Assembly: GCA_026414485.1 (NCBI GenBank)
Contig: JAOAIX010000010.1
Location: forward strand, 4,371 to 68,370
From: Candidatus Bathyarchaeota archaeon
Lineage (GTDB): Archaea > Thermoproteota > Bathyarchaeia > Bathyarchaeales > Bathycorpusculaceae
DNA length: 64,000 nt
Direction: 5' to 3'
Shown here: positions 9,298 through 53,446 of the stretch, in pieces
Numbering within the stretch: position 1 is the stretch's first letter
Layout: each line of letters opens with the position of its first letter
The notes under the pieces: model-generated
Databases searched by the model: none
What the model was told of the DNA's origin: nothing
The model's input: the letters and a program-made list of their open reading frames with translations, nothing else
Translations under genes and position numbers: made by a program

Positions 9298-9309
9298 GAA
9301 AGTTTCCTT

Positions 9310-9477: not shown

Positions 9478-9567
9478 ATTAACCGCACACTGAAGATTTC
9501 AGTTAGATATAATAAACGTTACTGTAATCTTTGCGTTTTAGCAGATAACTTTTGCCCTATTTGGAGT

Positions 9568-22461: not shown

Positions 22462-22551
22462 GTAGGTTCAACCTCACCTATTTTCTCATATTGAGTATTT
22501 AAAACATATCGAGAAAAATAAAAAACTAAAAGAAAAGATGGAATTGGAAGT

Positions 22552-24009
22552 CTATGGGCTTCCAGGTTGGTAGCCAGGCGGCAAAACGAATTCGGCTTGT
22601 TTAATTGACCCAACAACTGGTACAGCCGACGGATACACAATTTTTGGTCGTGCTTCCTGTAGAGTTGCGTTGTAGGTTAATTGTTCAACAAAGGTTACTG
22701 GCGAAATTTCGTGATAATTTACGCCTGTGCTGAACTGTATTGTGCCTGTTTTAGTCATGATTAGCATTTGAGGCATGTTTATCTGCTCGATAGCATCTCG
22801 GATAGCAGCTTTATCTAAAGTTCCTGCACGCTCAATCGCCTCCTTGGCTATGTAAAAAGCGTCATATGTATCAGCACCCATCATACCTGGCAAGGTGTTA
22901 TATTTTGCTTTGTAGTTTGCAACATAAGTTTCTATTGCAGGCAAGTAGAATGGTGGACCAGCATATGAAGCAAATTTTGATTCTAGTAGTACACCGTCAC
23001 CGTATTCTCCCAATAACGTGTAAAATTGTGGGTCTTCACAACATTCAACCGCTATGTAAACTGTATTTAATCCAACATCTTTCCGACCTTCTTTGATTAT
23101 TTCAGCAGTGTTAGCGATAAAGTCAACTACATAAACAGCGTCAGGTTTAGCATCTTTAATTACTGTGAGGTCAGTTTGGAAGGTGGTTGCAGTTGTCTGG
23201 TATGACCGCTCTGCAACTATTTCTATCGGAAGGTTGTTGGTTATTATAAGGTTTTTGGTGTCAGCTACAACGCCTTTACCAAAGGCGTCATTGCGGTAGA
23301 TAAGAGCCAACCGAAGAGGTCGTGAGGCTGCAAAATGGTAGGTGCTGTCAATCAAGGGTTTCATAGTTTCAGCGAAGAAATTAACTACTGTTGTGCTGTA
23401 GTCGGAAGTAGTTGTGCAGTAATGGAACATGTAGCTCATTCCTTCGGCATCGTTGATTCTTCTTGCGTCGTCTTCAGCTAATCCACCGAAGTTACCTTGT
23501 GGACCTCTGCGAGTAACCAGATTTGAAGAAGCTCCTGTTATTATGAACGGAACACGATTCTCAATTGCTACAACCTGCCCTGCGAGGGTGCCTGCACTTG
23601 TGTAACCACCTATTAAAAGATCGACTTTATCTTCAACTACTGCACGTGTAATTGGACCCACAGTCTCGCCTGCTGTATCTTTACCTGTGTCAGCGATTAT
23701 AAGCTCTATAGGAACTTTTGTGTTCCATTCAGCGACGTAGACGCCTCCAGCGGCGTTAATTTCTTCGACAGCAAGTTTAGCGGCTCTATCCATGTCTTGA
23801 CCTTCGGCTAGCTGGTAACCTGCAACTAAACCTATTCGAACAGGTCTTGCATCGGGTGATGGCGTAGTAGAAGCTAGTGGTGTAGCTGTTTGGGTTGGTG
23901 TAGGCGACGGCGATGAAGCTGGCTGCTGTGTTATTTGCCATACGCCAGCACTTGTGATAGCAACAATTACCACTATAGCGGTGATAACAACTAAAATTTT
24001 CTTTTGCAC
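22552..24009 (-). CDS. ABC transporter substrate-binding protein (LivK/type-I PBP) with N-terminal anchor and Thr/Pro linker
   Basis: 485 aa. N-terminal TM helix, linker SSPSPTPTQTATPLASTTPSP, then a type-I periplasmic-binding-protein-like body (VRIGLVAGYQLAEGQD...). Confidence 0.8.
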   Translation of the reverse strand: MQKKILVVITAIVVIVAITSAGVWQITQQPASSPSPTPTQTATPLASTTPSPDARPVRIGLVAGYQLAEGQDMDRAAKLAVEEINAAGGVYVAEWNTKVPIELIIADTGKDTAGETVGPITRAVVEDKVDLLIGGYTSAGTLAGQVVAIENRVPFIITGASSNLVTRRGPQGNFGGLAEDDARRINDAEGMSYMFHYCTTTSDYSTTVVNFFAETMKPLIDSTYHFAASRPLRLALIYRNDAFGKGVVADTKNLIITNNLPIEIVAERSYQTTATTFQTDLTVIKDAKPDAVYVVDFIANTAEIIKEGRKDVGLNTVYIAVECCEDPQFYTLLGEYGDGVLLESKFASYAGPPFYLPAIETYVANYKAKYNTLPGMMGADTYDAFYIAKEAIERAGTLDKAAIRDAIEQINMPQMLIMTKTGTIQFSTGVNYHEISPVTFVEQLTYNATLQEARPKIVYPSAVPVVGSIKQAEFVLPPGYQPGSP

Positions 24010-24061
24010 TACAATTTCTCCTCTTTTTTTCCTTTGTATATCGAAGGTACGCTTAATAAAA

Positions 24062-24655
24062 CTAACTCAAAGATACGCTTTGGCGTCCCAGTTCGAAAGC
24101 TTCAAGGTTTAGCGTTACATATTTTTCTTTAAGACGAGAGGTTATTGCCTGTTTGAAAGAGTCCTGCTTGACAGGATTCTCAGGTAAAGCGGAAACTGCG
24201 CCTAAAAGAACCGTGTTTACTACTAAGAGGTTCCCAAGTTTTTGAGCTATTCCTATGCCGTCTACCTCGTGTACCCGTCGCGCATAGCTCCGGATGAGGG
24301 CAAGTAGTTCTTCAGGTTTCACAGGTTTAGCGTTTCCCTGTGTAATACTGTTAGGCGGGATGTATTTTGTGTTAACTAAAACTGTACCTTTGGGTCTAAG
24401 CATAGAAAGGGAGCGAGCAGTTTCGAGAATTTCAAAACCAATAATTAAGTCAGCCTTACCAGTTTCAATCAACGGAGACAAAACTTTGTCGCCCACTCTT
24501 ACGTGAGCACTAATTGAACCACCACGTTGCGCCATGCCATGGATTTCAGCTTTTGCCACATCAAAACCGTCCAACATTGCGGCTTCGCAAAAAATGTCAC
24601 TTAAAACAACTACACCTTGCCCACCTACACCAGTGAAAATAAGGTCTAACGCCAT
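24062..24655 (-). CDS. iorB: Indolepyruvate:ferredoxin oxidoreductase subunit beta
   Basis: 197 aa. GVGGQGVV....I...A....G..V...E.HGMAQRGGS is the gamma-type POR domain. Immediately downstream of iorA. Confidence 0.85.
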   Translation of the reverse strand: MALDLIFTGVGGQGVVVLSDIFCEAAMLDGFDVAKAEIHGMAQRGGSISAHVRVGDKVLSPLIETGKADLIIGFEILETARSLSMLRPKGTVLVNTKYIPPNSITQGNAKPVKPEELLALIRSYARRVHEVDGIGIAQKLGNLLVVNTVLLGAVSALPENPVKQDSFKQAITSRLKEKYVTLNLEAFELGRQSVSLS

Positions 24656-24657
24656 TT

Positions 24658-26868
24658 TTATTCAATGCTCCTTATAGCGTTGAACGGACATAAAGCTTGG
24701 CACACACCACACCCCCAGCAGAGTGTTACGTCAATTTCCGCGCGTTCAGATTTCAAAGAAATTGCTGGGCATCCGAAAGCAGTTACACATATGCCGCAGG
24801 AGTTGCATTTTTCTGTAACTTCACGGGCAGAATTCTTGGGAATCTTAAGAGGACAAGGGCGCTCAGAAATTACCACGGAAGGACCATCATAATCCAAAAT
24901 TTCCTGTAGGACTTTTCGTGTTCCATCCACATCATAAGGATCTATATTTTTCACTTTTTCGACGCCGAGACTACGGCAGATTTCGTCAAGCTTCATAATT
25001 TTGGCGTCCTCGCCCATGGCGTTTTTTCCTGATCCAGGTGTAGGTTGATGCCCAGTCATGGCAACTACACGGTTATCGAGAATAACGACGCATACGTCAG
25101 CTTTGTTATAGGTTATATTCAAAAGACCTGGCATGCCGCCGTGAAAAAAAGTGGAGTCACCTATTACCGCGAAAACTTTTTCCTTGACTCCTGCATGAAA
25201 CATTCCTGCCGCTTGGGAAATTCCGGCGCCCATACACAGACAGGTTTGCACTGAGTTGAGAGGTTGCAAATAACCCAAAGTATAGCAACCAATATCGCCG
25301 GTGACAATTTTATCTTCAGTTCTACCTGAGAAACTGAGAGCTCCTTCGGGGCAAGTTTCCACACATTTTGGTTTGCCTTCGCAGGTATCACAGACTATTG
25401 CTTTTCTTGTTTGTGGATGCAAAGTAACGGCGCCATATTTACATGCAGTTATACACCAGCCGCAGCCGTCACATTTGCTTTCCTCCACATGGATAACCCC
25501 AGTTGTTGACAACTGAGATAACGCCTCTTTTGGGCAAGCAGTAACGCAAGGTGCATCTTTGCAGAGACGACAAGACAGGGCCATATTTGAAAGTGGATCA
25601 AGACGTACAGCTCGGATTCGTGATTTGTATGGATTGAAAACCTGCTCTTTTTCCCAAGAGCACTCAAGCTCACAAATGTCGCAACTAATGCATTTTTGAG
25701 GATTACATTGCACAAACTGGTTCACAGTATTTAAGGCATAATAGAAAGCCCGATGCGGACAGCCTGGACATAAAACTGGAGGGCGAGGGGGTAAAGTTAA
25801 GTCGATATTTCGCGATGGCAGTTTATCACATAAACCTATCTTAGAGAAAGCTTCACGAAGAAGATCAGGGTTGAATTCCCCAATTTCGTCGAGCTGTAGT
25901 TCCTTTTTTCCTAAAATTTCAACGTCTAAACCACGTAAATTCTCCTCGATGTAGGGACGCAGCTCTTCTACAACTATGATTTTTTCCAATTTAGATGCAA
26001 ATTGCCGCACTAACTCATATGGGAAAGGATACATGAAACCTAGTTTCAGCCAAGAAAACTTTTTTGAAGATAACAAAGATTTGGCGTAGTAGTATCCTAC
26101 ACCGCTACCTATTATGCCAATTTTTTTGTGGTTATTTTCGAAAACATTATAGTTGGATTTGTTGGCAATTTTTTCTGCTTCGGCCAAACGGCTTTTCAAC
26201 ACATGGTGTTGGCGCATAGCGTTTAAAGGCACCATGACCCATTTGGATTGGTCTTTGTCAAACTCGGCTTTGCGAGTAAGCTTAAGGAACTCTCCTATTT
26301 TTACGCGGGCTTTACTGTGGGCAACTCGGGTGGTTAAGCGGACGATGACAGGCAAACTAAGCTTTTCGCTTATCTCAAACGCTTCCCTAGTCATATCATA
26401 AGCTTCTTGAGGACTGCCGGCGTCAAGTAGGGGTATATTTGAGTGAACCGCAAAATAGCGGCTGTCCTGTTCGTTTTGGCTACTATGCATAGCTGGATCA
26501 TCGCAAACCACAATAACTAATCCGCCAACAACACCTGTGTAAGCCAGGGTCATTGCGGCGTCTGCAGCAACATTTAACCCAACATGTTTCATGGAAACAA
26601 TGGATCGAACTCCAGTCATAGAAGCGCCAGCAGCAACTTCTACTGCAACTATCTCGTTGACACTCCACTCTGCGTAGATTCCTAGGGGTTTAGCGACTTC
26701 AGCAATTGCTTCCAAAATTTCAGTTGAAGGCGTGCCAGGGTATGCTGCGGCAACTTTTATGCCAGACTCTATGGCTCCTCTAGCGACTGCTTCATCGCCG
26801 TTTAGTAGCATAAAACTACCGGGTTTGTTAATTGCAAGTTTTGAAGCCATGTTGATTGAGACCTTCAC
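24658..26868 (-). CDS. iorA: Indolepyruvate:ferredoxin oxidoreductase subunit alpha carrying an extra inserted four-cluster ferredoxin module
   Basis: 736 aa. Contains LLNGDEAVARGAIESG, LCPGCPHR, GDIGCYTLG, GDSTFFHGG and the C-terminal CNSCGICVTAFGCP / CWGCGVCQALCP. A ~140-aa Cys-rich insert occupies residues ~384-520. The start overlaps the paaK stop by 4 nt. Confidence 0.85.
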   Translation of the reverse strand: MKVSINMASKLAINKPGSFMLLNGDEAVARGAIESGIKVAAAYPGTPSTEILEAIAEVAKPLGIYAEWSVNEIVAVEVAAGASMTGVRSIVSMKHVGLNVAADAAMTLAYTGVVGGLVIVVCDDPAMHSSQNEQDSRYFAVHSNIPLLDAGSPQEAYDMTREAFEISEKLSLPVIVRLTTRVAHSKARVKIGEFLKLTRKAEFDKDQSKWVMVPLNAMRQHHVLKSRLAEAEKIANKSNYNVFENNHKKIGIIGSGVGYYYAKSLLSSKKFSWLKLGFMYPFPYELVRQFASKLEKIIVVEELRPYIEENLRGLDVEILGKKELQLDEIGEFNPDLLREAFSKIGLCDKLPSRNIDLTLPPRPPVLCPGCPHRAFYYALNTVNQFVQCNPQKCISCDICELECSWEKEQVFNPYKSRIRAVRLDPLSNMALSCRLCKDAPCVTACPKEALSQLSTTGVIHVEESKCDGCGWCITACKYGAVTLHPQTRKAIVCDTCEGKPKCVETCPEGALSFSGRTEDKIVTGDIGCYTLGYLQPLNSVQTCLCMGAGISQAAGMFHAGVKEKVFAVIGDSTFFHGGMPGLLNITYNKADVCVVILDNRVVAMTGHQPTPGSGKNAMGEDAKIMKLDEICRSLGVEKVKNIDPYDVDGTRKVLQEILDYDGPSVVISERPCPLKIPKNSAREVTEKCNSCGICVTAFGCPAISLKSERAEIDVTLCWGCGVCQALCPFNAIRSIE

Positions 26869-28184
26869 ATTTTGCCTTTCCGATTATCAAAAACGTGTTT
26901 GGCTTTTCCTTCTGTTCTAGGGATTTCTCCGTACTTTACAATTTCAATTTCAGGATGAAGCCCTGTGACGCTACAGATCTTACTTTGTATTTTAACTGCG
27001 AGAGCCTTCAAGTCGAGTTGTTTGTTTTTGGAGGCTTCCTCGTTTAATTCCACTTTTACCAGGAATGTATCTAAAGCATCTGGGCGATCTACAATTATGT
27101 GGTACTGCGAGGCCAATTCTGGAAATCCCATAACTACATATTCGATTTGTGATGGAAAGACGTTGACACCTCTAATGATAAGCATGTCATCTGATCTACC
27201 GCTGACCCGCATCATGCGGGCGTGTGTACGGCCACAAGGGCAATTATCTGTTTGAATAACAGAAATGTCACGTGTGCGATACCTTAGAAGAGGCAAAGCA
27301 GTTTTGGAGAGAGGGGTAAAAACCAGTTCACCTTCTTCGCCGTCAGAAAGAACTTCACCTGTTTCAGAGTTTATAGTTTCAACTATGAAGTGATCTTCCC
27401 AAACGTGTAAACCATGATGCTCTGAACATTCTATTGAAACCCCAGGACCACACAATTCAGTTAAACCGTAAACGTCAAAGGCGTTAATGCCTAATGTAGT
27501 TTGGATGCGGTCACGAATTCTTTCCGACCACGGTTCAGCGCCGAAAAGACCAAGTTTTAGAACTAGATCTCTTTTTGGGTCAACACCTTCAGCCGCCATG
27601 GTTTCTGCGAGGTAAACGGCAAAGCTAGGAGTACAGCATAGTACTGTGGCTTTTAGGTCTTTCATAAGTTTTATCTGGCGTTGAGTCATACCCCCGCTGG
27701 CGGGTATTATGGCGGCGCCAAGTTTCTGGGCGCCGTAGTGGAAACCTAAGCCACCCGTAAATAAGCCGTAGCCGTAGGCTATGTGGATGACGTCGTCGTT
27801 TCTGCCGCCTGCGGTGTATATAGATCGGGCCATTAACTCTTGCCATGTGTCCATGTCGGTTTTGGTGTACGCCCCAATAATAGGGTTACCTGTGGTACCG
27901 CTTGAAGCGTGGATTTCGACAATTTCGGCAGGAGGAACCGCCAACAGCCCAAGCGGATAATTATCTCTCAGATCATTTTTTACAGTGAAGGGAATTTTTT
28001 GCAGATCTACGAGAGTCTTTATGTTATCAGGGGTCAACTTTGCCTCCTTGAGTTTCCTTTTATAAAAAGGAGAGTTGTTGTAGCAATGTTTGACTTGCGC
28101 TTTAAGTTTTTTTAGTTGAAGTTCTTGGAGTTTTTTTCTTGGCATCGTTTCTATAGTTTTATTCCAGTACACACTATTGCTCAT
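26865..28184 (-). CDS. paaK: Phenylacetate--CoA ligase (PaaK / F390-synthetase family adenylate-forming enzyme)
   Basis: 439 aa. SSGTTGNPI AMP-binding motif, YGLTE, and a typical PaaK N-terminus (YWNK.IETMPR..L..LQL.KL). Confidence 0.85.
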   Translation of the reverse strand: MSNSVYWNKTIETMPRKKLQELQLKKLKAQVKHCYNNSPFYKRKLKEAKLTPDNIKTLVDLQKIPFTVKNDLRDNYPLGLLAVPPAEIVEIHASSGTTGNPIIGAYTKTDMDTWQELMARSIYTAGGRNDDVIHIAYGYGLFTGGLGFHYGAQKLGAAIIPASGGMTQRQIKLMKDLKATVLCCTPSFAVYLAETMAAEGVDPKRDLVLKLGLFGAEPWSERIRDRIQTTLGINAFDVYGLTELCGPGVSIECSEHHGLHVWEDHFIVETINSETGEVLSDGEEGELVFTPLSKTALPLLRYRTRDISVIQTDNCPCGRTHARMMRVSGRSDDMLIIRGVNVFPSQIEYVVMGFPELASQYHIIVDRPDALDTFLVKVELNEEASKNKQLDLKALAVKIQSKICSVTGLHPEIEIVKYGEIPRTEGKAKHVFDNRKGKM

Positions 28185-28199
28185 AGACGTTTCCTCCAG

Positions 28200-28937
28200 T
28201 TAAAGTCCCAGATATACTTCCTTGATGTGACTATTAGACAGCAGTTCTCTGCTTTTGCCATCTATAATAATCTTGCCTTCTTCGAGAACATATCCACGGT
28301 TAGATATGTTAAGTGAGTCTCGAATATTTTGCTCAACAAGGAGGACAGTTACGCCATCTTCATTTATTTTTGTTATAGTGTCAAGAACTTTTTCTACTAT
28401 TATTGGAGCTAACCCCAGTGAGGGTTCGTCTAATATGAGAAGCTGTGGATTGGACATTAAGCTACGGCAGATTACAAGCATTTGTTGTTCCCCACCGCTG
28501 AGAGTCTGAGCAAGGGCTTTTTGTTTCTTTTTGAGAACAGGGAAGATTTGATAGAGTTTTTCTTGAGTATCCTTTATTTTTTCTTTATTTTTGACACTGT
28601 AGGCACCCAGCTGCAGGTTCTCTTCAACAGTCAATTTGGGAAAAATCTCTCTTCCTTCAGGAATCATCGTTACGCCTTTTTTGACAATTTCATAGGTGGG
28701 GAGGTTTTGAATTTCTTCACCTTTAAATTGTATTGTTCCATCTTTTGCGGGCAACAGAGCCATTATAGTTTTTACGAGAGTGGTTTTACCTGCCCCGTTT
28801 GGTCCAATAATACTAACTATTTCTTTCTCTTTAATATGGAAAGATACATCCCAGAGAATTTGAACCATACCGTAGCCAGCTGATAAATTTTTGACTTCCA
28901 GCATGTTAGTCCTCTCCGAACGCAAATTTCTTGCCAA
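28200..28937 (-). CDS. livF: ABC transporter ATP-binding protein, LivF-type
   Basis: 245 aa. Walker A GPNGAGKTT, signature LSGGEQQ, Walker B LLILDEPS. Confidence 0.85.
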   Translation of the reverse strand: MARNLRSERTNMLEVKNLSAGYGMVQILWDVSFHIKEKEIVSIIGPNGAGKTTLVKTIMALLPAKDGTIQFKGEEIQNLPTYEIVKKGVTMIPEGREIFPKLTVEENLQLGAYSVKNKEKIKDTQEKLYQIFPVLKKKQKALAQTLSGGEQQMLVICRSLMSNPQLLILDEPSLGLAPIIVEKVLDTITKINEDGVTVLLVEQNIRDSLNISNRGYVLEEGKIIIDGKSRELLSNSHIKEVYLGL

Positions 28938-29658
28938 GGTAAACTTTTACGACTTCTTCGTTGTTGCAGACTTTTTCAGGTGTACCCTCGCAAAGTTTTT
29001 CGCCATGATGTAACACAATGACACGATTGCATAAACCCATTATCACACGCATTACATGCTCAACAATGAGTACAGTTATGCCCTGTTTGTTAATGAGTTT
29101 AACGAGTTCTACAGCTTGGTCACTTTCTTTTGGCGTTAACCCTGTGAGAAGCTCGTCAAGAAGGAGCAGGTGAGGTTTTGTTGCTAGAGCACGGGCAAGT
29201 TGAACACGACGCAGCTCAATAACGTTGAGGTTCTGAGCAGGCAGAGTAAATTTTTCTTTTGGTAAACCAACAAAGTCCAAAAGCTCAGAGGCTTTTGTGG
29301 CAGCATTAATTTTTTCACCGTATTTTTTTGCAGCAAAAAGAACAGCAGTAAGAACATTTTCAAAGGTGGTCATGTCAGGAAAGGATTGGACTGTCTGAGA
29401 AGTTTTAGCTATACCTTTTGAGCAGATAGTGTAAGGGGGTAGCTTTGTTATGTCTTCATTTTGGAAAAGAATTTTGCCGCTATCAGGTTTGTAAACACCG
29501 CTAATAATATTCAGTATTGTGGATTTACCTGAACCGTTTGGTCCAACAAGTCCTACGATTTCGTTCTTGTTAACTGATAAGTCTACCCTTTTTAGTGCTT
29601 GCACACCACCAAATGTTTTAGAAACTTCAAGGCATTGCAGCAACAGATGTTTCTCCAA
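28906..29658 (-). CDS. livG: ABC transporter ATP-binding protein, LivG-type
   Basis: 250 aa. KTFGGVQAL, Walker A GPNGSGKST, LLLLDE. First gene of the operon. Confidence 0.85.
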   Translation of the reverse strand: MEKHLLLQCLEVSKTFGGVQALKRVDLSVNKNEIVGLVGPNGSGKSTILNIISGVYKPDSGKILFQNEDITKLPPYTICSKGIAKTSQTVQSFPDMTTFENVLTAVLFAAKKYGEKINAATKASELLDFVGLPKEKFTLPAQNLNVIELRRVQLARALATKPHLLLLDELLTGLTPKESDQAVELVKLINKQGITVLIVEHVMRVIMGLCNRVIVLHHGEKLCEGTPEKVCNNEEVVKVYLGKKFAFGED

Positions 29659-29940: not shown

Positions 29941-31350
29941 ATGTCGAGCCCAAAAAAACCAAAAATTGCTCTTGTAACTTCACCTCATCTTGAAAGGGCA
30001 TACCATCACCCGCTTTTTCCACCAATAGGTTTGAGTTATCTAGCTGCGGTTTTAGATCAACACGAATATGAAGTGAAAGTTATAGATTGCCCAGCTTGCA
30101 ATTTTACACAGCAGAACTTAAAATCTGAGCTTGCTTCGTTTTCACCTGACCTTATAGGTATAGCATCGATGACTGCAACAATACCATCAGCTTTGGAGTC
30201 TGCGCGAGTAGCAAAAGAAACATGCCCAGACAGCAAGGTCATAATGGGTGGTCCACACGCCACCTTCGCAGATGAGCAGATTCTAAGTGAAGAAGAAGCA
30301 GTGGATATCGTGGTGCGAGGCGAGGGTGAAATAACCATGTTAGAGTTGGCACAGAATAATGCTGACCAAAAAAGTTTGCCCAAAACCAAAGGTATAACCT
30401 TTAGAAATAAAGGGCAAATTGTTAGAACAGAAAGCCGTGACTTCATTGAGGATTTGGATGCACTTCCCAGACCCGCCTACAAATTCTTACCTATGGATAG
30501 GTACAAGATCACAGGTAAAACATTCCTTCCAATAATGACCAGCAGAGGCTGCCCATTCCAATGCAGTTTCTGTGTAGCTAGCCAAATTTTTGGTGCAAAA
30601 TTTCGTGCACGCAGCCCAAAAAACGTGGTTGATGAATTGGAGTGGCTCAAAACAGAGTATGGTGCTGACGGCATCAGTTTCCATGACGACACTTTAACGT
30701 TGGACAAGAAACGCATTATTGACATATGTGACGAAATGATTAATCGTAAAATTAATTTACCTTGGGGCTGCCAAACCCGTGTGGACACGGTTTCTGAAGA
30801 AGTTTTAGCCAAAATGCGCAAGGCAGGTTGTAACGAAGTTTCATTCGGCATCGAATCAGGCTGCCAACGAATCCTTGACGCCGTGCACAAAAAATTTGAG
30901 TTATCACAGGCTGAAAAAGCCATCAAGTGGGCAAAAAAAGAAGGACTGTTCGTAGCGGTTTCCACAATCATCGGTTATCCAGGAGAAACCAAAGAGACGA
31001 TGCAGCAAACCATGGATTTAATGCGGCGGATTGAACCAGATGACGCATGGTTATGCATAGCTACGCCATATCCAGGAACGGAGTTACGAGCTTTGGTGGA
31101 AAAGAACGGTTGGAAAATGACCAATGATTGGACAAAATATAACACTATGAACCCCATCTTTGAGAATCCAGATTTGCCTTCGGAAGAATACAGCAAAATG
31201 CGGACAAAATTCTACAATAGTTTTTACACGCCCAAATATGTTCTCCGACAATTCTCTAAAGGCTACTTGAAGGGTAACTTTTACAGCAAAATCATGGCAA
31301 GAACTGCTGTGAACTACATGCTGTGGCGGATCTTATCAAAGTTCCACTGA
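29941..31350 (+). CDS. B12-binding-domain radical SAM protein (class B)
   Basis: 469 aa. N-terminal Rossmann-like cobalamin-binding domain (KIALVTSP...PPIGLSYLAAVL...IGIASMT...IMGGPHAT) and radical SAM motif CPFQCSFC. Confidence 0.8.
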   Translation: MSSPKKPKIALVTSPHLERAYHHPLFPPIGLSYLAAVLDQHEYEVKVIDCPACNFTQQNLKSELASFSPDLIGIASMTATIPSALESARVAKETCPDSKVIMGGPHATFADEQILSEEEAVDIVVRGEGEITMLELAQNNADQKSLPKTKGITFRNKGQIVRTESRDFIEDLDALPRPAYKFLPMDRYKITGKTFLPIMTSRGCPFQCSFCVASQIFGAKFRARSPKNVVDELEWLKTEYGADGISFHDDTLTLDKKRIIDICDEMINRKINLPWGCQTRVDTVSEEVLAKMRKAGCNEVSFGIESGCQRILDAVHKKFELSQAEKAIKWAKKEGLFVAVSTIIGYPGETKETMQQTMDLMRRIEPDDAWLCIATPYPGTELRALVEKNGWKMTNDWTKYNTMNPIFENPDLPSEEYSKMRTKFYNSFYTPKYVLRQFSKGYLKGNFYSKIMARTAVNYMLWRILSKFH

Positions 31351-31353
31351 ACT

Positions 31354-32235
31354 TCAAATTCTGATTTGCCTCTTTTTTGTAAAAAATAACAGTATACCAA
31401 TTAAAGGCAAAGTTGCCATCCACAAGTCTACGTTGTGCAACACCGCAAACGTCGGCCAAACGGTTAAAACCGCAGATCTACCAAACATAAACCACAGAAC
31501 TAAGATAACATCAAAGTATAGTCCCAATACCACCAAAATTAATCCTACTTTTTTAGGATTAAAATCGTCTAACGATTTTGTTTTAAAAAAGTTTTTTGCA
31601 TAGACCGCTGAGTAAACCGCAACCAAAAAGAGTCCTACGACGGTTAGGGAGAATTCAAAGGCATACCTAGCTGAAGACAGAAGAAAGGCGGTACCTTGTA
31701 GGTAAATTTCGCTCCACCATTGTGAAGTATAGTTGAACCAGAAAACAAACATGTAAGCAGCAAGGACAACTAGAGCCCATCGCAGGGCATTTATGGATGA
31801 TTTTGCGGGGCTCAACTTGAAAAACAAAATCCCTAATACTGTGGGCATCACGATAGCTTGTAAGAGACAGGGCAACCCCGCTTCTATTATGAAGAATTCT
31901 CTAGAGTACAGAACACTCTGGAAGTTAAAACCCCAGAAACCCACAGGAAGAAACAACAACCAGTAGGCAGCTTCAAGTAGAACAATCCACCTAAGCGAAG
32001 TAATCAATTCGGCTTTGGATAATTCTCTCCCAACCAAGTAGAACAAGGAAACTATGAGGGCTATGAAGCTAGCAGCTGCTCTGAAACCAAAACCAACAGA
32101 TCCAGGCATGTCAGTAACGGGCACGTCGGTCAAATTGAGAACAGTAAGACCAAATTTATACATTGTAAAAGAAAACCATGCTAACGCAACCGTGAACAAG
32201 CCTGTCTTGAACACCCATGCCGATCTGTTTTCCAC
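31354..32235 (-). CDS. Hypothetical integral membrane protein (~8 TM)
   Basis: 293 aa, strongly hydrophobic and W/F/Y-rich, no recognisable motif. Convergent with the B12-radical SAM gene across a 3-nt gap. Confidence 0.4.
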   Translation of the reverse strand: MENRSAWVFKTGLFTVALAWFSFTMYKFGLTVLNLTDVPVTDMPGSVGFGFRAAASFIALIVSLFYLVGRELSKAELITSLRWIVLLEAAYWLLFLPVGFWGFNFQSVLYSREFFIIEAGLPCLLQAIVMPTVLGILFFKLSPAKSSINALRWALVVLAAYMFVFWFNYTSQWWSEIYLQGTAFLLSSARYAFEFSLTVVGLFLVAVYSAVYAKNFFKTKSLDDFNPKKVGLILVVLGLYFDVILVLWFMFGRSAVLTVWPTFAVLHNVDLWMATLPLIGILLFFTKKRQIRI

Positions 32236-32570: not shown

Positions 32571-33872
32571 ATGACAACATCTGCAGGCTCACAGAACAAA
32601 CAGGAAGCTTATGAACAAAGAACTAACTGGCCTCCCTACACATATAGGGACTACCCAGATATTAAACCTGAAACTTACAAAGCCTTCCTCGAATTTTTAA
32701 ATACAGAAAACACCACAGGCAGACTTATGGAGTTACAACCTTGGATTTCGGTTTGCGACTCCCGATGTGCCTTCTGCTATTTCCCAACAACCGCATCAAG
32801 CAAAGTTAAACTAGAGCCTTACCTTGAACTGCTCAAAAAAGAGTTAGACATGTATTCAAAAACTAAATATGTGAAAACCAGCTTGTTTGACGAGATAGTT
32901 TTAGGTGGTGGAACACCAAGTGTTCTTTCAGCTGAGCAGATTATTGATCTTATCGACTTCTGTAAAAAACGCTTCACCACAAGCAAAGAATACTTCATCA
33001 AAGTCACAGGTTCTTCCAAAACGTTGGCACTGAGCAAAATTGACAAACTTGCTGCCTATGGGGTGTACCAAATGGATATGGGAGCCCAGACCTTCGATGA
33101 CAAACTCCGAAAAATGCTTTGCTTACCCGACAGCGCCGCGGAAGTTGAGAAAGCTATTAAGCATGCTAGAAAATTAGGTTTGTGCGTTTGCGTAGATTTA
33201 ATGTATAATCTACCCGGGCAAACCATGGAAAGTTGGATAAACACACTAAAGAAAGCTATAGAACTGGACGTAGAAATTGATGCCTACTCACTACACGTTG
33301 ATCCAGGCACACCGCTGGAGACCATGATTAAAAAAGGCATTTCACCACCCCAAGGAGACGCAGAATATGAAAAGCAAATGTACCTTACTGCCTACAACAT
33401 GCTCACCCAGGCAGGCTACAAAGCCGTTGGACATGACCGCTTTTCACGTGTCGAATGGCATATGCGGGAGAACTGCCTTAACGGCTGGCCATGGGGGGGA
33501 ATATTAACTACAGGTGCAGGTTGCTTTATGGGTTACTTACAGCGATTCTCGTACAGCAACCTTGAAGACATAAATGCATATATGGAAGCAGTAAAAGCTG
33601 GGAAACTGCCTATTCAGAAATTGTCTGAATCCACGGACGAAGAAATGATGAGTCGTGAAATGAGTAGACTCTATTTGCGTTTACCAGTGAGCAAAACAGA
33701 GTTCATGGAAAAATTTGGTAAACTACCTGAAGAAGTCTTCCCACAGCAGTTGAAAAACCTCCAGAAAAGAGGTTTAATTGAAATTGACGATAAAGAAATT
33801 CGCATAACAAAAGAAGGCGAAGTATGGAAGGGCAACATAGCATGGGAGTTCGCTCAAAAACCCTCCTCCTAA
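32571..33872 (+). CDS. Radical SAM protein, HemN/HemW (oxygen-independent coproporphyrinogen oxidase-like) family
   Basis: 433 aa. Motif CDSRCAFCYF (CxxxCxxC), GGGTPS, and a HemN-like C-terminal helical domain. Confidence 0.7.
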   Translation: MTTSAGSQNKQEAYEQRTNWPPYTYRDYPDIKPETYKAFLEFLNTENTTGRLMELQPWISVCDSRCAFCYFPTTASSKVKLEPYLELLKKELDMYSKTKYVKTSLFDEIVLGGGTPSVLSAEQIIDLIDFCKKRFTTSKEYFIKVTGSSKTLALSKIDKLAAYGVYQMDMGAQTFDDKLRKMLCLPDSAAEVEKAIKHARKLGLCVCVDLMYNLPGQTMESWINTLKKAIELDVEIDAYSLHVDPGTPLETMIKKGISPPQGDAEYEKQMYLTAYNMLTQAGYKAVGHDRFSRVEWHMRENCLNGWPWGGILTTGAGCFMGYLQRFSYSNLEDINAYMEAVKAGKLPIQKLSESTDEEMMSREMSRLYLRLPVSKTEFMEKFGKLPEEVFPQQLKNLQKRGLIEIDDKEIRITKEGEVWKGNIAWEFAQKPSS

Positions 33873-34004: not shown

Positions 34005-34685
34005 TTAATGCCTCATCGGGGCTATTCCATACCAAGTCATGACCTTGGCCACTATGGGAGCGATGATGCCTAAGATTATCATTGGAAGCATTGTCAAGAA
34101 AGCTGCATTCAATGGGTCACCGGCAGTCATCCAAGCGCTGAATGCGACAGTTATGTTGAAGATGAATTGAAGTACACCCACCAATATAGCAGCGGTTAAG
34201 CCTGCGCCTAACATACGTTTGAAGCTGTATGAACCGTTGTTTAATGCGCCTGCAACGTATCCAACGAGGATTCCGCCGACAATATAGTTGCCAATAAAGC
34301 TAGGATCAGCATACAAATTATATGTGTACTCGACACCAAAGGATTTGAGGCTAGTCATTATGTTATAGCCTGCCATGCCCATATAGTACAATGTACCCAT
34401 GATGAAACCTGCGCAACCGCCAGCCCATTTATTCCACAGTAAACCTAAGATGAGTGGTACAGCAAACATAACCATCTGAGCAAAGCCATGTGTGAATATC
34501 ACAGTGAGAAACGCGTAGGGTGATCCTGGGTCACCAGTCATCATGTTTGGCGGTGGGAACCAGCTGTCAAGAGCAGGGCGAAGAATAGCAGGGAAAGCAA
34601 CGATTATTAAACCGACAATTACTGGTACAACTAAGCCAAATCCTATGTCTTTTAACTTGAATTTTTCTGTTTCCATCTTTCTCAT
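34005..34685 (-). CDS. Hypothetical integral membrane protein (~6 TM)
   Basis: 226 aa, G/A/M-rich helices, no motif recognised. Has its own TATA-like box (TTTATAA at ~34710-34725 on the minus strand). Lies downstream of the RnfD-like gene. Confidence 0.4.
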   Translation of the reverse strand: MRKMETEKFKLKDIGFGLVVPVIVGLIIVAFPAILRPALDSWFPPPNMMTGDPGSPYAFLTVIFTHGFAQMVMFAVPLILGLLWNKWAGGCAGFIMGTLYYMGMAGYNIMTSLKSFGVEYTYNLYADPSFIGNYIVGGILVGYVAGALNNGSYSFKRMLGAGLTAAILVGVLQFIFNITVAFSAWMTAGDPLNAAFLTMLPMIILGIIAPIVAKVMTWYGIAPMRH

Positions 34686-34848
34686 CCTTTAAGTGTCTAT
34701 ACGTTTGGGCGCGTTTATAAATTTAATGTTTTAAATCGACAAAAGGTGCCTCCTTAAAACTCTAAGGTTAGGTCGAACTTGTTGTGAAGAGGAGACAAGA
34801 AAAAGTACGAAAAAAAATTAACGAAAAAAGAAAATTAAGGGTGTGTGT

Positions 34849-36207
34849 TTATTGCTGGCGCATCATGCCTTTGGCAGTAAGCACCGACTTTCGAAGGTCT
34901 ATTCTTGCAGGGCAAATGAATGTGCAATGGCCGCACCCAGTGCAGTAGTCTGCGTGTAGTTTTGCCAGAGCGTCAAAGTCTTGTTTATCATAGGCTTGCT
35001 TAATCAGTATCGGACTGAGCGCGTGACAGCAGACCCGCATGCAGGCACCACATTTGATGCAAGCGTATTCCTTGACTTTTTCTGCGGCAAATTGTTTAGC
35101 TTTAGGCAGTTTAGGCTCTTTTTTCTCTTGGCGAGGAGTAAGCTTACCAATTTGATCTAGCTTTGAAACGGTCAAGTTCATAATTAACAACGCAAGGATG
35201 GAGCCACCGAAGAAGTTCATGTAGGTCTGGATTAGGATTGTCAACACGCCTAAGCCCACACCGAAAATTAACTGACCAGTATAAGTAAGCGGTGTTGTTG
35301 CAGGATCAGTTGCCATGAAGAAGCCCATGAAAATTGAGCTACCAATGAATATAGAGAAAATCAATCGATAAGTCATGTCGGTATCGGCATACGCAACTGA
35401 CAGGATAACTGACATTAGTGCAACCGTAACAAAGTAGGCGAGGGTGATTCTCCATTTTATGAATCGGTGTGCAACAGCGAACAGGGCGATACCTGCTATT
35501 ATGACGGCTATACTTGAAGCTCCCCCTACCCAACCATGGAATTTCTCAAAGATCATTATGTAGGGTACGTCGGGTGGAGTTGCAACAGCCGGATTTGCAA
35601 AGCAGCCTTGAAGGTAACTGGCAAAAGAAGCCATACCGTTGTCGCCTACGGGCGCTATTCCTCCGCCAAGTGGACCTGCTAAGGCGGGTACACCAAGCCA
35701 ACCAGTTTTGAGGTGGTCAACAGCGATGAATATTGAGTTGAAGAGAGGAAGTAGAACAAGGAATTTAGCAGCTGCAGCGGGGTTAAGTTTGTGTGGCAGA
35801 ACTTTTTTGAACAGAACCATGCCAACGAGGGATATTAATCCGACGTAAACGAAGGCTCCTGGAGCGTCGACTGGTAACCCTACTTCAGTGTTCATTGAAG
35901 GTAAACCCAAGCTGTAGGAAAGAGTAACTATGAGACCATAGACTGCAGCAGACATCAAATTGAGAGGACTATCTGATACAAGTTTGTAGAAAAGAACATC
36001 AATTCCTACCGCAACGCCCACAGAGATGAGAGCACATATGATGACGGTAAGGCCGAGGTTTAGGCTTGTAGTGCCAGTCATAAGGTTTGTGGGTGTAACT
36101 TGTGACCATAGAGCAGCTGAGACAATTGTGATGGCAAGGAGTGCTATGAACGTGTAAAGCATTAGACGGTCTTTTGTCATTGCAGAATATTCTTTTGGTT
36201 TTGACAT
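34849..36207 (-). CDS. RnfD/NqrB-family membrane protein fused to a C-terminal RnfC-type 2x[4Fe-4S] ferredoxin domain
   Basis: 452 aa. RnfD-like blocks LNPAAAAKF, IKWRITLAYFVTVAL and FFMATDPATTPLTYTGQLIFGVGLGVLTILIQ. C-terminal CIKCGACMRVC...CTGCGHCTFICP. SD-like AAAGGAG 8 nt upstream of the ATG. Confidence 0.65.
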   Translation of the reverse strand: MSKPKEYSAMTKDRLMLYTFIALLAITIVSAALWSQVTPTNLMTGTTSLNLGLTVIICALISVGVAVGIDVLFYKLVSDSPLNLMSAAVYGLIVTLSYSLGLPSMNTEVGLPVDAPGAFVYVGLISLVGMVLFKKVLPHKLNPAAAAKFLVLLPLFNSIFIAVDHLKTGWLGVPALAGPLGGGIAPVGDNGMASFASYLQGCFANPAVATPPDVPYIMIFEKFHGWVGGASSIAVIIAGIALFAVAHRFIKWRITLAYFVTVALMSVILSVAYADTDMTYRLIFSIFIGSSIFMGFFMATDPATTPLTYTGQLIFGVGLGVLTILIQTYMNFFGGSILALLIMNLTVSKLDQIGKLTPRQEKKEPKLPKAKQFAAEKVKEYACIKCGACMRVCCHALSPILIKQAYDKQDFDALAKLHADYCTGCGHCTFICPARIDLRKSVLTAKGMMRQQ

Positions 36208-36428
36208 ATTTGCATAATCTCCTTTTTAATGAAATCTGTCAAAAACGTTAGGTTGTTAAGTTTATAAGATTTTCTAGTTAAGGTATAGAAAACACCAAAA
36301 ACGGTGTGATTCCACGTTTTTTAGATTTTTTGAGTGCGCAAAAAGAATAAAAAGTACTTTCTGCGGGAAAAAATTTTATTTTTCACTTGAATTAGAGAAA
36401 CTAATGGTTCTCACTTAAGAACAAAACA

Positions 36429-36468
36429 TTCCGCTATAGGAACAGAAACTTACAAAAAAAGTACAAGA
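36429..36468 (+). promoter_or_regulatory. Conserved upstream element (copy B) shared with 32469..32520
   Basis: TTCCGCT-N5-AACAGAAACTTACAAAAAAAGTACAA, about 60-100 nt upstream of the SPASM radical SAM start. Confidence 0.25.
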
Positions 36469-36525
36469 AGAACAGAGACGAATAATAGATAATTTTATAT
36501 CGTAAAGAATCGTCTAACTCATGCT

Positions 36526-37641
36526 GTGAGTTTGATGGCAAACGCAATGCCTAATTCAAAAGCACCTTTATATATGGTAACTTGGAGATGTACCCGACGA
36601 TGTGTTGGCAGCTGCCTCTATTGCAGCTACACTCCTGAATACGCCAAAGATACAGAGTTAGACACAGAAGCTGCCAAAAGAATGGTGGACGAAATTCACG
36701 ATTTTGGTTCTCCGTGGTTCGGCATAAGCGGCGGCGAACCACTGGTTAGAAAAGACATTTTTGAGGTCATTGACTACGCGAAAAAGACGTACGGTATGGA
36801 AGTAAGCCTCATCACTAGCGGTTTTGCTTTTGATCAAGAAAGGCTTGATAAACTTGTAAGGCATGAAGTTCACACGGCGGTCAGCGTTGATGGTAACCGA
36901 GAGTCAAATGATATAATTCGCCGGAAAGGTAGCTATGACAAAGCGCTTTTCGCCATGAAGAAACTTTCAGAAAACGGCATTTTAGACTGCATAGTTACAA
37001 CCATGACTAAATACAATATCAATGACATGGCACATCCAGCGGCTTTAGGTGAAGAATACAAAGCACGCATGGTTGTTTACCATAATCTTGTGCCCGTGGG
37101 TAGGGCAGGCAGCAACATGCCTGATTTGGCACCGACGCCTGAACAATACGAAGCTGCATTTAACGAGATTTATGATTTGCAGCGTAAACTTATGGGTAAA
37201 GTCAAAATTAACGTTTATGCCCCGTTCTACGCCCGTATTGTCCGCCAGAAGAATCCAGTAGATTTCTGGGAATGGTATCAGAACGGTTATTTAGGCAGAT
37301 GCACTATAGGCGGAAACTACGTCAGCGTCACCGAAAACGGTGATTACCGCTCCTGCGGCTTTCATGAAGGCTACAGGCTAGGCAATGTAAAAGAGAAAAA
37401 ACTGACAAAAGTTTGGGAAGAACTCCAACAGAGCCCACTACATTTAAAACTACGCGATAAAAGCAATATAAAAGGTAGATGCGGAGTTTGTGAATACCGA
37501 GAAATTTGCGGTGGATGCCGAACACGTGCAGAGTACTACACAGGAGACCTCTTTGAGTCCGACCCTGCTTGCAATTACATCCCCAAAGTTCTCCGAGAAG
37601 ATCCACAACTAGCCAAAAAATACGGCGTAAAAATCCAGTAA
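36526..37641 (+). CDS. Radical SAM/SPASM-domain protein, AhbC/AhbD/NirJ-like
   Basis: 371 aa. Radical SAM motif CVGSCLYC, GGEPL, and a C-terminal SPASM region CGVCEYREICGGCRTRAEYYTGDLFESDPACNY. Confidence 0.75.
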   Translation: MSLMANAMPNSKAPLYMVTWRCTRRCVGSCLYCSYTPEYAKDTELDTEAAKRMVDEIHDFGSPWFGISGGEPLVRKDIFEVIDYAKKTYGMEVSLITSGFAFDQERLDKLVRHEVHTAVSVDGNRESNDIIRRKGSYDKALFAMKKLSENGILDCIVTTMTKYNINDMAHPAALGEEYKARMVVYHNLVPVGRAGSNMPDLAPTPEQYEAAFNEIYDLQRKLMGKVKINVYAPFYARIVRQKNPVDFWEWYQNGYLGRCTIGGNYVSVTENGDYRSCGFHEGYRLGNVKEKKLTKVWEELQQSPLHLKLRDKSNIKGRCGVCEYREICGGCRTRAEYYTGDLFESDPACNYIPKVLREDPQLAKKYGVKIQ

Positions 37642-48037: not shown

Positions 48038-48493
48038 GTGGCAGTTGCACTTCTGCTCTCTGCAGTTCTTTTGGGATATTACTACATCGCTGTTAGAACT
48101 CCAACGAAGGAGTATCTAACACTGTATTTGTTGAATACTCAGCGACGTGCTGAAGGGTACCCTGAATTGCTAGTTTTAGGCGAGAACAACACAATTAGCG
48201 TCTATGTCAATGTGGAGAACCACATGAACACATCTCATTTGTGTGAAGTTCAAATTAAAGTAACCAGAGATGTCAGCCCAATGTTTCCACTTAATACAAC
48301 TGCAATTCAAACATTTAGGGAAACTCTTCAAGTTGGAGCTAAATTAGAAAAGCTTACTACTGTTTCTTTGGATCAGATTGGGAATTTTTCCGTGGTTTTT
48401 GAGCTGTGGGTTCTCAACGAGTTGGGAGTCTTGGAGTTCAGCGGCGAATTTTGCGTTTTAAATGTCCGAGTTATAAATAGCACAGGCAACTAA
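48038..48493 (+). CDS. DUF1616-like membrane-anchored protein (short form)
   Basis: 151 aa. One TM helix, then EYLTLYLLN....AEGYPE.L..GENNTISVYVNVENHM, which resembles the DUF1616 extracellular part. It lacks the usual multi-TM N-terminus and may be truncated. Confidence 0.35.
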   Translation: MAVALLLSAVLLGYYYIAVRTPTKEYLTLYLLNTQRRAEGYPELLVLGENNTISVYVNVENHMNTSHLCEVQIKVTRDVSPMFPLNTTAIQTFRETLQVGAKLEKLTTVSLDQIGNFSVVFELWVLNELGVLEFSGEFCVLNVRVINSTGN

Positions 48494-51757: not shown

Positions 51758-51789
51758 GGGCTTGAACTCACGATAAAGCCTATATCTTA

Positions 51790-53279: not shown

Positions 53280-53446
53280 TTTGTTTGCATCCTTAACGTG
53301 AAGCGTCTCCCTTTGAAGTTATGTCTTGTAAAATATATAACAAACCTGTTCAGAATAGAATTTTTTATTTTCTTTTCAGGGAAATCTTTAACACTTTGCC
53401 ACAGCCATTTTAATACGATGTTTCGTTGCTTCAGGGGTAGCTACAA

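Follow-up and report, generated by a model that had tools for sequence, protein, structure and literature searches.

In a 64,000-nucleotide stretch of a Candidatus Bathyarchaeota archaeon genome (GenBank assembly GCA_026414485.1, contig JAOAIX010000010.1, positions 4,371 to 68,370 of the forward strand; hereafter the window), we analyzed an open reading frame (ORF), here termed RnfD-Fd, that joins an RnfD/NqrB-type membrane domain to an RnfC-type iron-sulfur (Fe-S) ferredoxin domain. We propose, with a probability of roughly 0.6, that RnfD-Fd is a stand-alone 'RnfCD-type' electron-transfer module, which relays electrons from cytoplasmic Fe-S clusters to a flavin in the membrane, rather than part of an Rnf or Nqr ion pump. 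The domain assignment, the conservation of the fusion, the cytoplasmic modules exchanged among its relatives, and the residues of a riboflavin-type pocket carry this proposal.

A preliminary description of the window, made from the letters alone, had reported a single 452-aa ORF with these two parts, and Pfam, NCBIfam, and Foldseek agreed with it. In a hidden Markov model scan, residues 3–353 matched the Pfam family NQR2_RnfD_RnfE (PF03116) with an E value of 3.7e-30 and 105.7 bits (cutoff 27.7) over positions 5–289 of the 296-position profile, and residues 378–436 were covered by Fer4 and 4Fe-4S dicluster families. Three sequence blocks that had been quoted from E. coli RsxD genuinely occur in that protein and align as stated. 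The NCBIfam models for RnfD and NqrB all scored below their curated cutoffs (TIGR01946, 75.5 vs 207; rnfD_Methano, 70.8 vs 400; RsxD, 68.4 vs 415; NqrB, 61.5 vs 414). For residues 376–451, the top NCBIfam match was the C-terminal end of RnfC (TIGR01945, positions 358–433 of 435, E 4.9e-14), followed by RsxC and archaeal RnfC, and every other ferredoxin family ranked lower. A PDB sequence search with RnfD-Fd returned RnfD, NqrB, and RnfC chains only (RnfC chain 7zc6_C, E 7.4e-7). The barrel-sandwich and NuoF-like parts of RnfC that handle flavin mononucleotide (FMN) and NADH (RnfC_N and Complex1_51K) had no Pfam match in the ORF.

The predicted structure was consistent with these assignments. 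An AlphaFold2 (AF2) model, built from 93 homologues, had a mean predicted local distance difference test score (pLDDT) of 92.5 and a predicted template modelling score (pTM) of 0.92, and it showed the RnfD/NqrB fold. The top 15 Foldseek matches in the PDB were all RnfD or NqrB chains, with E values of 1e-11 to 1e-8 and target-normalised template modelling (TM) scores of 0.58–0.75; among them were 9eri_D (1.3e-11), 8ahx_D, 7zc6_D, and NqrB chains. Urea and Amt (ammonium) channels came next, with E values of 1e-4 to 1e-2. The Fe-S domain superimposed on RnfC of A. woodii (9eri_C) over 79 columns with a root-mean-square deviation of 1.6 A and 33% identity. Residue conservation was counted over 121 aligned family members, in which the eight ligand cysteines of the di-[4Fe-4S] domain were invariant and the whole set of Cys383, 386, 389, 393, 394, 422, 425, 428, and 432 was invariant or nearly so. 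The spacer between the two cysteine motifs, previously given as 31 residues, is in fact 28 residues long (394–421). In the AF2 model, a strand at residues 371–374 lies alongside an N-terminal strand at residues 5–8, and the two may pair.

The distribution of lysine and arginine followed the positive-inside pattern, with 19 such residues in the C-terminal part and 0–1 in each of the predicted outer loops. The N-terminus, two short loops, and the C-terminal part were predicted to lie on the cytoplasmic side, and the loop that normally bears FMN was predicted to face outward. From this topology, and from the fusion of relatives to the cytoplasmic-type modules FrhB and FdhA, we infer that the Fe-S domain would sit on the cytoplasmic face. 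In the Rnf complex, the C-terminal cluster domain of RnfC occupies the cytoplasmic face of RnfD, where it bridges the RnfD riboflavin to the RnfC FMN (PMC12174285).

RnfD-Fd is real, is under purifying selection, and is not an artefact. More than 1,500 full-length homologues were found. The best 120 database homologues were full-length, had the same two domains, and were 58–96% identical to the query; no exact match to the window protein was listed in public assemblies, the nearest being 96% identical (P0001, L008, and L009). A scan of one genome per species detected relatives in 306 genomes, the best 80 of which were Bathyarchaeia except for a few oddly labelled metagenome-assembled genomes (MAGs). 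Five loci (L024, L035, L058, L066, and L077) contained the Bathyarchaeia-type gene and gene cluster under records naming Nanoarchaeia, Limnocylindrales, Sulfotelmatobacter, Acidoferrum, and 'uncultured bacterium'; these labels are probably binning or labelling errors. Dozens of residues were invariant across the family, including all cluster cysteines. When homologues were clustered at 50%, the family collapsed to a handful of representatives, after which the list fell to ordinary RnfD/NqrB proteins at E ~1e-14, indicating a tight, lineage-specific clade. The clade signature motifs HGWxGG and KWRI differ from canonical RnfD, and the motif FFMAT[DE]P is also shared by archaeal relatives.

We compared 83 related loci for the form of the ORF and for the genes within 8 kb. 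The same single ORF was present at 72 loci and a longer form at ten, so that the fusion was one continuous ORF at 82 loci; only L086 had a split form. A frameshift or assembly artefact had been named as a possible explanation of the fusion. It was rejected on the strength of the full-length homologues and of these continuous ORFs; the single split case contains a full RnfC gene and not a broken gene. The conservation of the fusion and of its neighbours, which the preliminary description had left to be checked, was borne out across these loci. One locus, L024, also had a tandem paralogue (6623..7759), a 379-aa RnfD-like ORF with no ferredoxin domain and 52% identity, directly upstream of the full-length fusion.

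No other part of an Rnf or Nqr complex was found near the gene. When E. coli RsxA, RsxB, RsxC, RsxD, RsxE, RsxG, and ApbE were used as phmmer queries against all six-frame ORFs of the window, RnfD-Fd was the sole match, and a Pfam sweep of ~50 larger window ORFs detected no member of the Rnf-Nqr, FMN_bind, or ApbE families. The orphan status of the gene with respect to rnfA/B/E/G and nqr genes in the 64 kb, as first described, thus stood. Homologues of RsxA, RsxB, RsxE, RsxG, and ApbE were likewise absent within 8 kb at all 83 loci, and no cytochrome gene was found in the window or at these loci.

Relatives of the membrane domain occur in unfused form. A search from a distant member (P0270) identified ~340-aa RnfD-like proteins with no ferredoxin domain in Asgard and Thermoplasmata archaea. 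At all four orphan loci compared (Promethearchaeia, Thermoplasmata, and two MAG or metagenome contigs; L004, L005, L089, and L090), the RnfD-like gene had a complete RnfC gene a few bases downstream, encoding RnfC_N, a NuoF-like FMN domain (Complex1_51K), and two clusters, and no other rnf genes were present at these loci. L089 had one orphan RnfD-like gene and then two tandem full-length RnfC genes (7089..9806). The Fe-S domain of the query was 38–42% identical to the C-termini of these archaeal RnfC proteins and 31% identical to that of E. coli RsxC. In L086, a Bathyarchaeia MAG, the orthologous locus (7869..10396) contained an unfused RnfD-like ORF, 65% identical to the query membrane domain, and then a complete RnfC gene (RnfC_N, Complex1_51K, and Fer4), flanked on both sides by the same neighbours as the fusion (SPASM, membrane-protein, HemN-like, and B12-binding radical S-adenosylmethionine (SAM) genes).

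Other forms had gained modules. The longer form, found at 10 of the 83 loci (~12%), is ~720 aa in length and has an FrhB/FdhB-type module after the ferredoxin domain. A distant relative in L088 (6370..12925) is a 1131-aa protein in which the RnfD-like domain is fused to an Fe-S/molybdopterin catalytic subunit of the formate-dehydrogenase type (FdhA), and the genes that follow it are NuoE-like, NuoF-like, and NuoG-N-terminal-like; such an arrangement would amount to a formate/NADH module anchored in the membrane, of a type not previously described. Since RnfC, FrhB, and FdhA are exchanged as inputs, the constant part is the RnfD-like domain with RnfC-type clusters, and the variable part the cytoplasmic dehydrogenase module. 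As for the origin of the fusion, we read it as descended from the two-gene pair of RnfD-like and RnfC genes that is still present in Asgard archaea, Thermoplasmata, and L086. On this reading, most Bathyarchaeia lost the NADH/FMN part of RnfC, with the leftover ferredoxin domain becoming fused to RnfD, and ~12% of loci afterwards gained the FrhB-type flavo-iron-sulfur module.

Two flavin sites of canonical RnfD/NqrB proteins were examined. In NqrB, N200, N203, T345, and D346 form the riboflavin pocket, and double mutants lose riboflavin (PMC9293633). The equivalents of the last three are fully conserved in the RnfD-Fd family (N142, T300, and D301); at the equivalent of N200, the query has His and most members have Arg. 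These residues suggest that a flavin would occupy the riboflavin-type pocket.

The covalent FMN site gave a different picture. The preliminary description had read IGSS (residues 288–291) as the counterpart of an FMN-attachment motif SGAT. The alignment with the real RsxD sequence contradicts this: IGSS aligns to RsxD S276-G-A-T279, which is intramembrane, in a helix just before FFILTDP, and is not the flavinylation site. The flavinylated Thr of RsxD lies in SQAT187P, in an outer loop ~90 residues ahead of that SGAT. Ordinary RnfD/NqrB proteins show the canonical motif, D[AG]x[ST]xA[TS]P, which aligns to G-D-N-G-M-A-S194-F of the query. Neither [ST]GA[ST] nor D[AG]x[ST]xA[ST] was present in any of the 121 family members, and the acceptor position 194 was Ser in 73, Gly in 40, and Thr, Pro, or Ala in the remaining eight. 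Judging from these alignments, the family as a whole probably does not depend on the ApbE-type covalent FMN that canonical RnfD carries, and this individual protein may bear covalent FMN on S194. In the region where canonical RnfD holds FMN, H165, H224, and W226 were invariant and C202 was conserved in 120 of the 121 members.

In the model that we favour, a cytoplasmic reductant would reduce the two [4Fe-4S] clusters of RnfD-Fd. For the short form, this reductant may be reduced ferredoxin; the FrhB forms may use F420H2, and the RnfC-partnered forms NADH. From the clusters, electrons would reach a flavin held non-covalently in the conserved riboflavin pocket, and then an acceptor within or at the membrane. 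The input modules are classic dehydrogenase types (RnfC, FrhB, and FdhA with NuoEFG-like proteins), which argues for electron transfer. A lipophilic carrier was considered as the acceptor by analogy with NqrB, whose quinone site depends on N-terminal helices missing from RnfD-Fd. Tentatively, and at somewhat less than even odds, the module donates electrons to, or takes them up from, membrane-associated chemistry of its neighbours, namely the six-helix partner together with the HemN-like, SPASM, and B12 radical-SAM enzymes. The preliminary description went further and suggested a minimal transmembrane electron conduit. Electron entry into the membrane domain is plausible; a transmembrane conduit needs an outer-face cofactor and the canonical outer FMN site is not conserved, so that passage across the membrane is unproven.

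Several points weigh against the favoured model. The absence of rnfA/E/G and apbE genes covers the window and the 8-kb flanks and not whole genomes, and RnfD-Fd scores far under the NCBIfam RnfD cutoff (75.5 vs 207). The docking of the Fe-S domain at the cytoplasmic face is suggested by the pTM of 0.92 and by topology arguments only, and flavin binding by three conserved residues, with Arg or His at the equivalent of NqrB N200. The model names no electron acceptor. The link to radical-SAM enzymes is synteny in one archaeal class and may reflect inherited gene order; radical-SAM neighbours are missing from the sister RnfD+RnfC pairs of Asgard archaea and Thermoplasmata; and the presence of seven radical-SAM genes in the 64-kb window makes proximity less surprising.

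The coordinates of RnfD-Fd, its parts, and its cluster neighbours are given in Table 1.

Table 1. RnfD-Fd, its domains and candidate cofactor residues, and the genes clustered with it (positions in the window)
Feature	Position	Strand	Remarks
RnfD-Fd ORF	34849..36207	(-)	Complete, 452 aa + stop: RnfD-like membrane domain, basic linker, RnfC-type di-[4Fe-4S] domain
RnfD/NqrB-type membrane domain, residues 1-353, ~10 helices	35149..36207	(-)	PF03116, AF2, Foldseek
Lys/Arg-rich linker (GKLTPRQEKKEPKLPKAKQFAAEK), residues 354-377, predicted cytoplasmic	35077..35148	(-)	K/R distribution across loops
RnfC-type di-[4Fe-4S] ferredoxin domain, residues 378-452	34852..35076	(-)	TIGR01945, PDB search, Foldseek, cysteine conservation
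N142 (NPA motif), equivalent of NqrB N203 in riboflavin pocket	35782..35784	(-)	121/121 conserved
T300-D301 of FFMATDP, equivalents of NqrB T345/D346 in riboflavin pocket	35305..35310	(-)	121/121 conserved
S194, aligned to flavinylated RsxD Thr187	35626..35628	(-)	Motif context absent; residue not conserved
IGSS 288-291	35335..35346	(-)	Aligns to RsxD intramembrane SGAT (276-279), not flavinylation site
Predicted outer-face loop region with H165, C202, H224, W226 (HGW motif)	35536..35715	(-)	Family-invariant, clade-specific
Six-helix membrane protein, no Pfam family	34005..34685	(-)	Downstream partner in ~60/83 loci; start probably 34676 (METEKFKLK)
Radical SAM/SPASM enzyme, AhbD/NirJ/PqqE-like, under all curated cutoffs	36526..37641	(+)	Divergent, conserved upstream neighbour
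HemN-like radical SAM enzyme, best ChuW/HutW, HemW, HemN, all under cutoffs	32571..33872	(+)	Convergent, conserved
B12-binding radical SAM enzyme, BchE/HpnJ-like, under cutoffs	29941..31350	(+)	Frequent cluster member
293-aa membrane protein, no known family	31354..32235	(-)	Occasional member, 11/83 loci

The SPASM gene was present at 72–75 of the 83 loci, upstream and divergent at 61 of them, with a median gap of 324 bp and a median identity of 82%. The HemN-like gene was found at 66–68 loci, convergent at 64, with a median identity of 83%, and the B12 radical-SAM gene at about 44–47 loci; a second SPASM gene was often present. The core order of the cluster survived local rearrangements (L019, L032, L083, L084, and L087), while the outer flanks varied. 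NCBIfam gave the radical-SAM neighbours no name (the best models, all for tetrapyrrole enzymes, BchE, ChuW/HemW/HemN, and AhbD/NirJ, scored far under their cutoffs), and their PDB matches (PqqE and HemN) were uninformative. A tetrapyrrole or lipid theme for these enzymes would be a guess.

The six-helix partner had more than 1,600 homologues on the same contigs as RnfD-Fd homologues. It has no conserved set of Cys or His ligands, and its sole cysteine is not conserved. The AF2 model of the partner had a pLDDT of 86, and its 12 best Foldseek matches were S-components of energy-coupling factor (ECF) transporters (ThiT, RibU, PanT, and BioY). These matches were weak in E value (~0.1–0.7) and TM score (0.35–0.6), with Foldseek probabilities of 0.87–0.99 (0.99 for the first nine). 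At the sequence level, Pfam searches to E 10 and a PDB profile search gave noise only. Neither EcfT nor EcfA was seen among the genes identified around the cluster, although no search aimed at them was made. The possibility that the partner is a divergent RnfA or RnfE was rejected: it had no Pfam Rnf-Nqr match, no RnfA/E or NqrD/E was among 50 Foldseek matches, and the lone cysteine is not conserved.

Upstream of the RnfD-Fd start, the gap 36208..36525 contained a CTTATAAA box and GGAG. Long T-runs resembling archaeal terminators followed the RnfD-Fd stop (gap 34686..34848), and a TTTATAAA box lay ~35–40 nt before the ATG at 34676, where the partner homologues start. The T-runs, together with the TTTATAAA box, suggest that RnfD-Fd and its partner may be separate transcripts.

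In the sub-clade of the window, the cluster abuts a Btu-type corrinoid ATP-binding cassette (ABC) importer and cobamide nucleotide-loop genes, an arrangement found at only ~8 of the 83 loci. The window segment 39208..40993 encodes a 370-aa protein with a weak DBI_PRT (CobT-type phosphoribosyltransferase) match and a Diphthami_syn_2-type ATP-binding protein, and these genes are flanked by CobS/CobY-like genes on one side and by a Btu-like ABC importer (ATPase, FecCD permease, and Peripla_BP_2) on the other. This layout, which resembles a cobamide salvage cassette, is also found in L001, L008, L057, L085, and L086. Another segment of the window, 20556..29658, contains a branched-chain-type ABC importer (Liv-like binding protein, two permeases, and two ATPases), followed by indolepyruvate:ferredoxin oxidoreductase-like genes (24658..26868 and 24062..24655) and a phenylacetate-CoA-ligase-like gene (26865..28184), in the same order in L008. 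This cassette would yield reduced ferredoxin just beside the RnfD-Fd cluster.

Further redox and cofactor genes were observed elsewhere in the window. A 319-aa protein (13767..14726, minus strand) has two Fer4_5 repeats and a 4Fe-4S dicluster domain, an architecture of NapH/NosR-type membrane polyferredoxins. It is directly adjoined by a 964-aa CARDB-domain protein that looks extracellular (14753..17647, minus strand), and the two are possibly another membrane-to-outside redox pair. A second group of cofactor- or lipid-type genes (48490..54871 and 60556..61959) comprises a radical-SAM gene with an HMPTM zinc ribbon (48490..49956), a UbiA prenyltransferase (49953..50831), an epimerase, a DUF362 gene, a second CobS-family gene (51790..52653), an NTP-transferase (52608..53279), a 474-aa radical SAM/SPASM protein (53447..54871), and another B12 radical-SAM gene (60556..61959).

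Four other explanations of RnfD-Fd were weighed. The strongest, though still doubtful, is that it acts as the redox partner of the co-clustered radical-SAM enzymes at the membrane, giving them a low-potential electron or taking electrons from oxidative reactions, with a hydrophobic substrate (a lipid, or a tetrapyrrole or quinone-like cofactor) being modified there. The order of SPASM radical-SAM gene, RnfD-Fd, membrane protein, and HemN-like gene, often extended by the B12 radical-SAM and second SPASM genes, holds at most of the 83 species-level loci, the radical-SAM neighbours are highly conserved (median 82–83% identity), and tetraether lipids of the membrane are modified by archaeal B12 radical-SAM enzymes, one of which comes from a Bathyarchaeon (bioRxiv 10.1101/2025.10.20.683597). 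However, this synteny is confined to one class, RnfD+RnfC relatives outside Bathyarchaeia have no radical-SAM neighbours, and two of the 83 loci (L030 and L048) have no cluster gene within 8 kb. A soluble ferredoxin would suffice for radical-SAM clusters, leaving the membrane domain unexplained, and the functions of the radical-SAM enzymes are not assignable, all curated cutoffs being missed. It is unlikely that RnfD-Fd is a true transmembrane conduit, in which electrons would pass from the cytoplasmic Fe-S clusters to the inner flavin, an outer cofactor, and finally an acceptor outside the cell, for example humics, Fe(III), or a syntrophic partner. In place of an ApbE-type threonine, H165, H224, W226, and C202 would hold the outer cofactor, and the S-component-like neighbour might supply flavin. 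The canonical RnfD fold holds an inner and an outer flavin ~8 A apart (PMC12174285), the predicted outer loop, which is exactly the place of FMN in RnfD, bears the invariant His, His, Trp, and Cys, and Ser is still at the acceptor position in 60% of the family, this ORF included. The best fold matches of the partner include riboflavin-binding RibU, the ECF-S-like EetB of Listeria exports FAD for extracytosolic flavoproteins (PMC9973259), and bacterial fusions of NqrB/RnfD to an NqrF domain have been proposed as one-way conduits (PMC8238504). Against this stand the flavinylation motif, missing in 121 of 121 members, the Gly acceptor residue in a third of them, and the absence of ApbE, FMN_bind, and cytochrome genes from the window and the 83 loci. 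The S-component likeness is weak (E ~0.1, TM 0.35–0.6) and has no sequence support, and the placement of the His and Cys residues comes from topology prediction, not from model distances. Still less probable is a more specific form, an Rnf-derived, ApbE-independent conduit in Bathyarchaeia (unfused in Asgard archaea and Thermoplasmata) that would run from ferredoxin, F420H2, or NADH through the Fe-S clusters and the inner flavin to a novel outer cofactor at His165/His224/Trp226/Cys202, loaded or held by the partner; this cofactor may be, for example, a His- or Cys-linked flavin, a metal, or a haem.

We consider it very unlikely that RnfD-Fd is mainly a channel or transporter, with the S-component-like protein as substrate binder and the Fe-S domain as a redox sensor or gate. 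The Foldseek matches to urea and Amt channels agree with a relationship of RnfD/NqrB to such channels noted in PMC12174285, the partner resembles vitamin-binding S-components, and the corrinoid importer and cobamide salvage genes adjoin the cluster in the sub-clade of the window. But the flavin-pocket residues and all nine cysteines are invariant, the cytoplasmic module is swapped among classic dehydrogenase inputs, and the cob and btu genes are adjacent at only the few loci mentioned above. The notion that RnfD-Fd is a degenerate or misassembled remnant of an rnf operon, or that it belongs to a normal Rnf complex with its remaining genes located elsewhere in the genome, is largely refuted. 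Databases label its homologues 'RnfABCDGE type electron transport complex subunit D'; the ORF is nevertheless intact and fused at 82 of 83 loci, it has >1,500 homologues and relatives in 306 species genomes, and dozens of its residues are invariant, all cluster cysteines among them. No rnfA/B/E/G gene lies within 8 kb at any of the 83 loci, published surveys of Bathyarchaeia find no Rnf complex (PMC7886697, PMC9534799), and the family has clade motifs of its own (HGWxGG and KWRI) unlike canonical RnfD.

Among known systems, one close to the stand-alone module proposed here is the RnfC–RnfD interface of Rnf (A. woodii 9eri, C. tetanomorphum 7zc6, and A. vinelandii 8ahx), with which it shares the membrane fold, the di-[4Fe-4S] domain, and three riboflavin-pocket residues. 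Unlike Rnf, RnfD-Fd is one polypeptide, with RnfD first and then a C-terminal piece of RnfC, and has no RnfC NADH/FMN body. RnfA, RnfB, RnfE, and RnfG are not encoded nearby, the flavinylation motif is not conserved, the outer-face His/His/Cys set is clade-specific, and the protein falls under the curated cutoffs for both RnfD and RnfC. The direct relatives are the archaeal pairs of RnfD-like and RnfC genes (Promethearchaeia, Thermoplasmata, and L086), which share HGWxGG, KWRI, and FFMAT[DE]P. These pairs differ in being unfused, in having a complete RnfC, and in their implied substrate, NADH, and the pairs outside Bathyarchaeia have neither the six-helix partner nor radical-SAM neighbours. 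No characterised member of these pairs was found either.

The 'NQR/RNF-like systems' of Actinobacteria and the candidate phyla radiation, which are known from bioinformatics only (Meheust et al. 2021, PMC8238504) and are the nearest concept described so far, likewise have an NqrB/RnfD membrane domain with a C-terminal cytoplasmic input domain and lack the rest of Nqr/Rnf, and one-way transfer was proposed for them. In contrast to RnfD-Fd, they fuse the NAD-binding domain of NqrF (PF00175) and cluster with ApbE and FMN-binding proteins, whereas RnfD-Fd has an RnfC-type ferredoxin domain, with or without FrhB, archaeal hosts, and no ApbE, FMN_bind, or RsxG-like gene nearby. What is new relative to the known NqrB/RnfD fusions is the fused domain, the archaeal host, and the lack of flavinylation machinery nearby and of the flavinylation motif. 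Bacterial RnfC–RnfD fusions (P0315 and P0371) and RnfD–RnfG fusions (P0296, P0322, and P0354) indicate that touching Rnf subunits are sometimes fused. The RnfC–RnfD fusions differ from RnfD-Fd in having a full-length RnfC and then RnfD, with a canonical flavinylation motif (e.g. VDGVSKATPL), and appear to be canonical RnfD by sequence. In Na+-NQR, NqrB has the same fold and riboflavin pocket and donates to a membrane acceptor (ubiquinone) and not to a soluble one. It differs in its covalent FMN and in a quinone site formed by extra N-terminal amphipathic helices that RnfD-Fd lacks, and its partner NqrA has no cofactors (PMC12174285).

In agreement with the preliminary description, which knew of no characterised example of such a fusion, we found no description of an RnfD-ferredoxin fusion, or of an RnfCD-only complex in archaea, in the literature searched. 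Studies of Bathyarchaeia report Rnf as absent (PMC7886697, PMC9534799), some papers on the group list isolated RnfB/C/D BLAST hits without comment, and a 2025 review of Rnf/Nqr (PMC12174285) does not mention forms like RnfD-Fd. The preliminary description had overlooked the unfused RnfD+RnfC relatives, the FrhB and FdhA variants, the partner membrane protein, the radical-SAM cluster, and the bacterial NqrB/RnfD fusions (PMC8238504).

The stray 'RnfD' hits in surveys of Bathyarchaeia thus belong to a coherent, conserved, fused, and widespread family. In anoxic sediments, Bathyarchaeia rank with the most abundant archaea, their ferredoxin re-oxidation and energy conservation are unresolved, and RnfD-Fd is a candidate membrane redox entry point in these archaea and, by extension, in the Asgard archaea and Thermoplasmata that have the unfused pair. 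The family represents an RnfC–RnfD half-complex with interchangeable inputs, namely the ferredoxin domain only, FrhB, full RnfC, or formate dehydrogenase. For the evolution of Rnf and Nqr, this means that the RnfCD half is evidently able to exist alone. A further outcome is a conserved radical-SAM cluster whose substrate may be a membrane compound. If the ApbE-independent conduit proved true, it would provide a means of electron disposal, outside the cell or to a membrane-bound process, for archaea without quinones and cytochromes.

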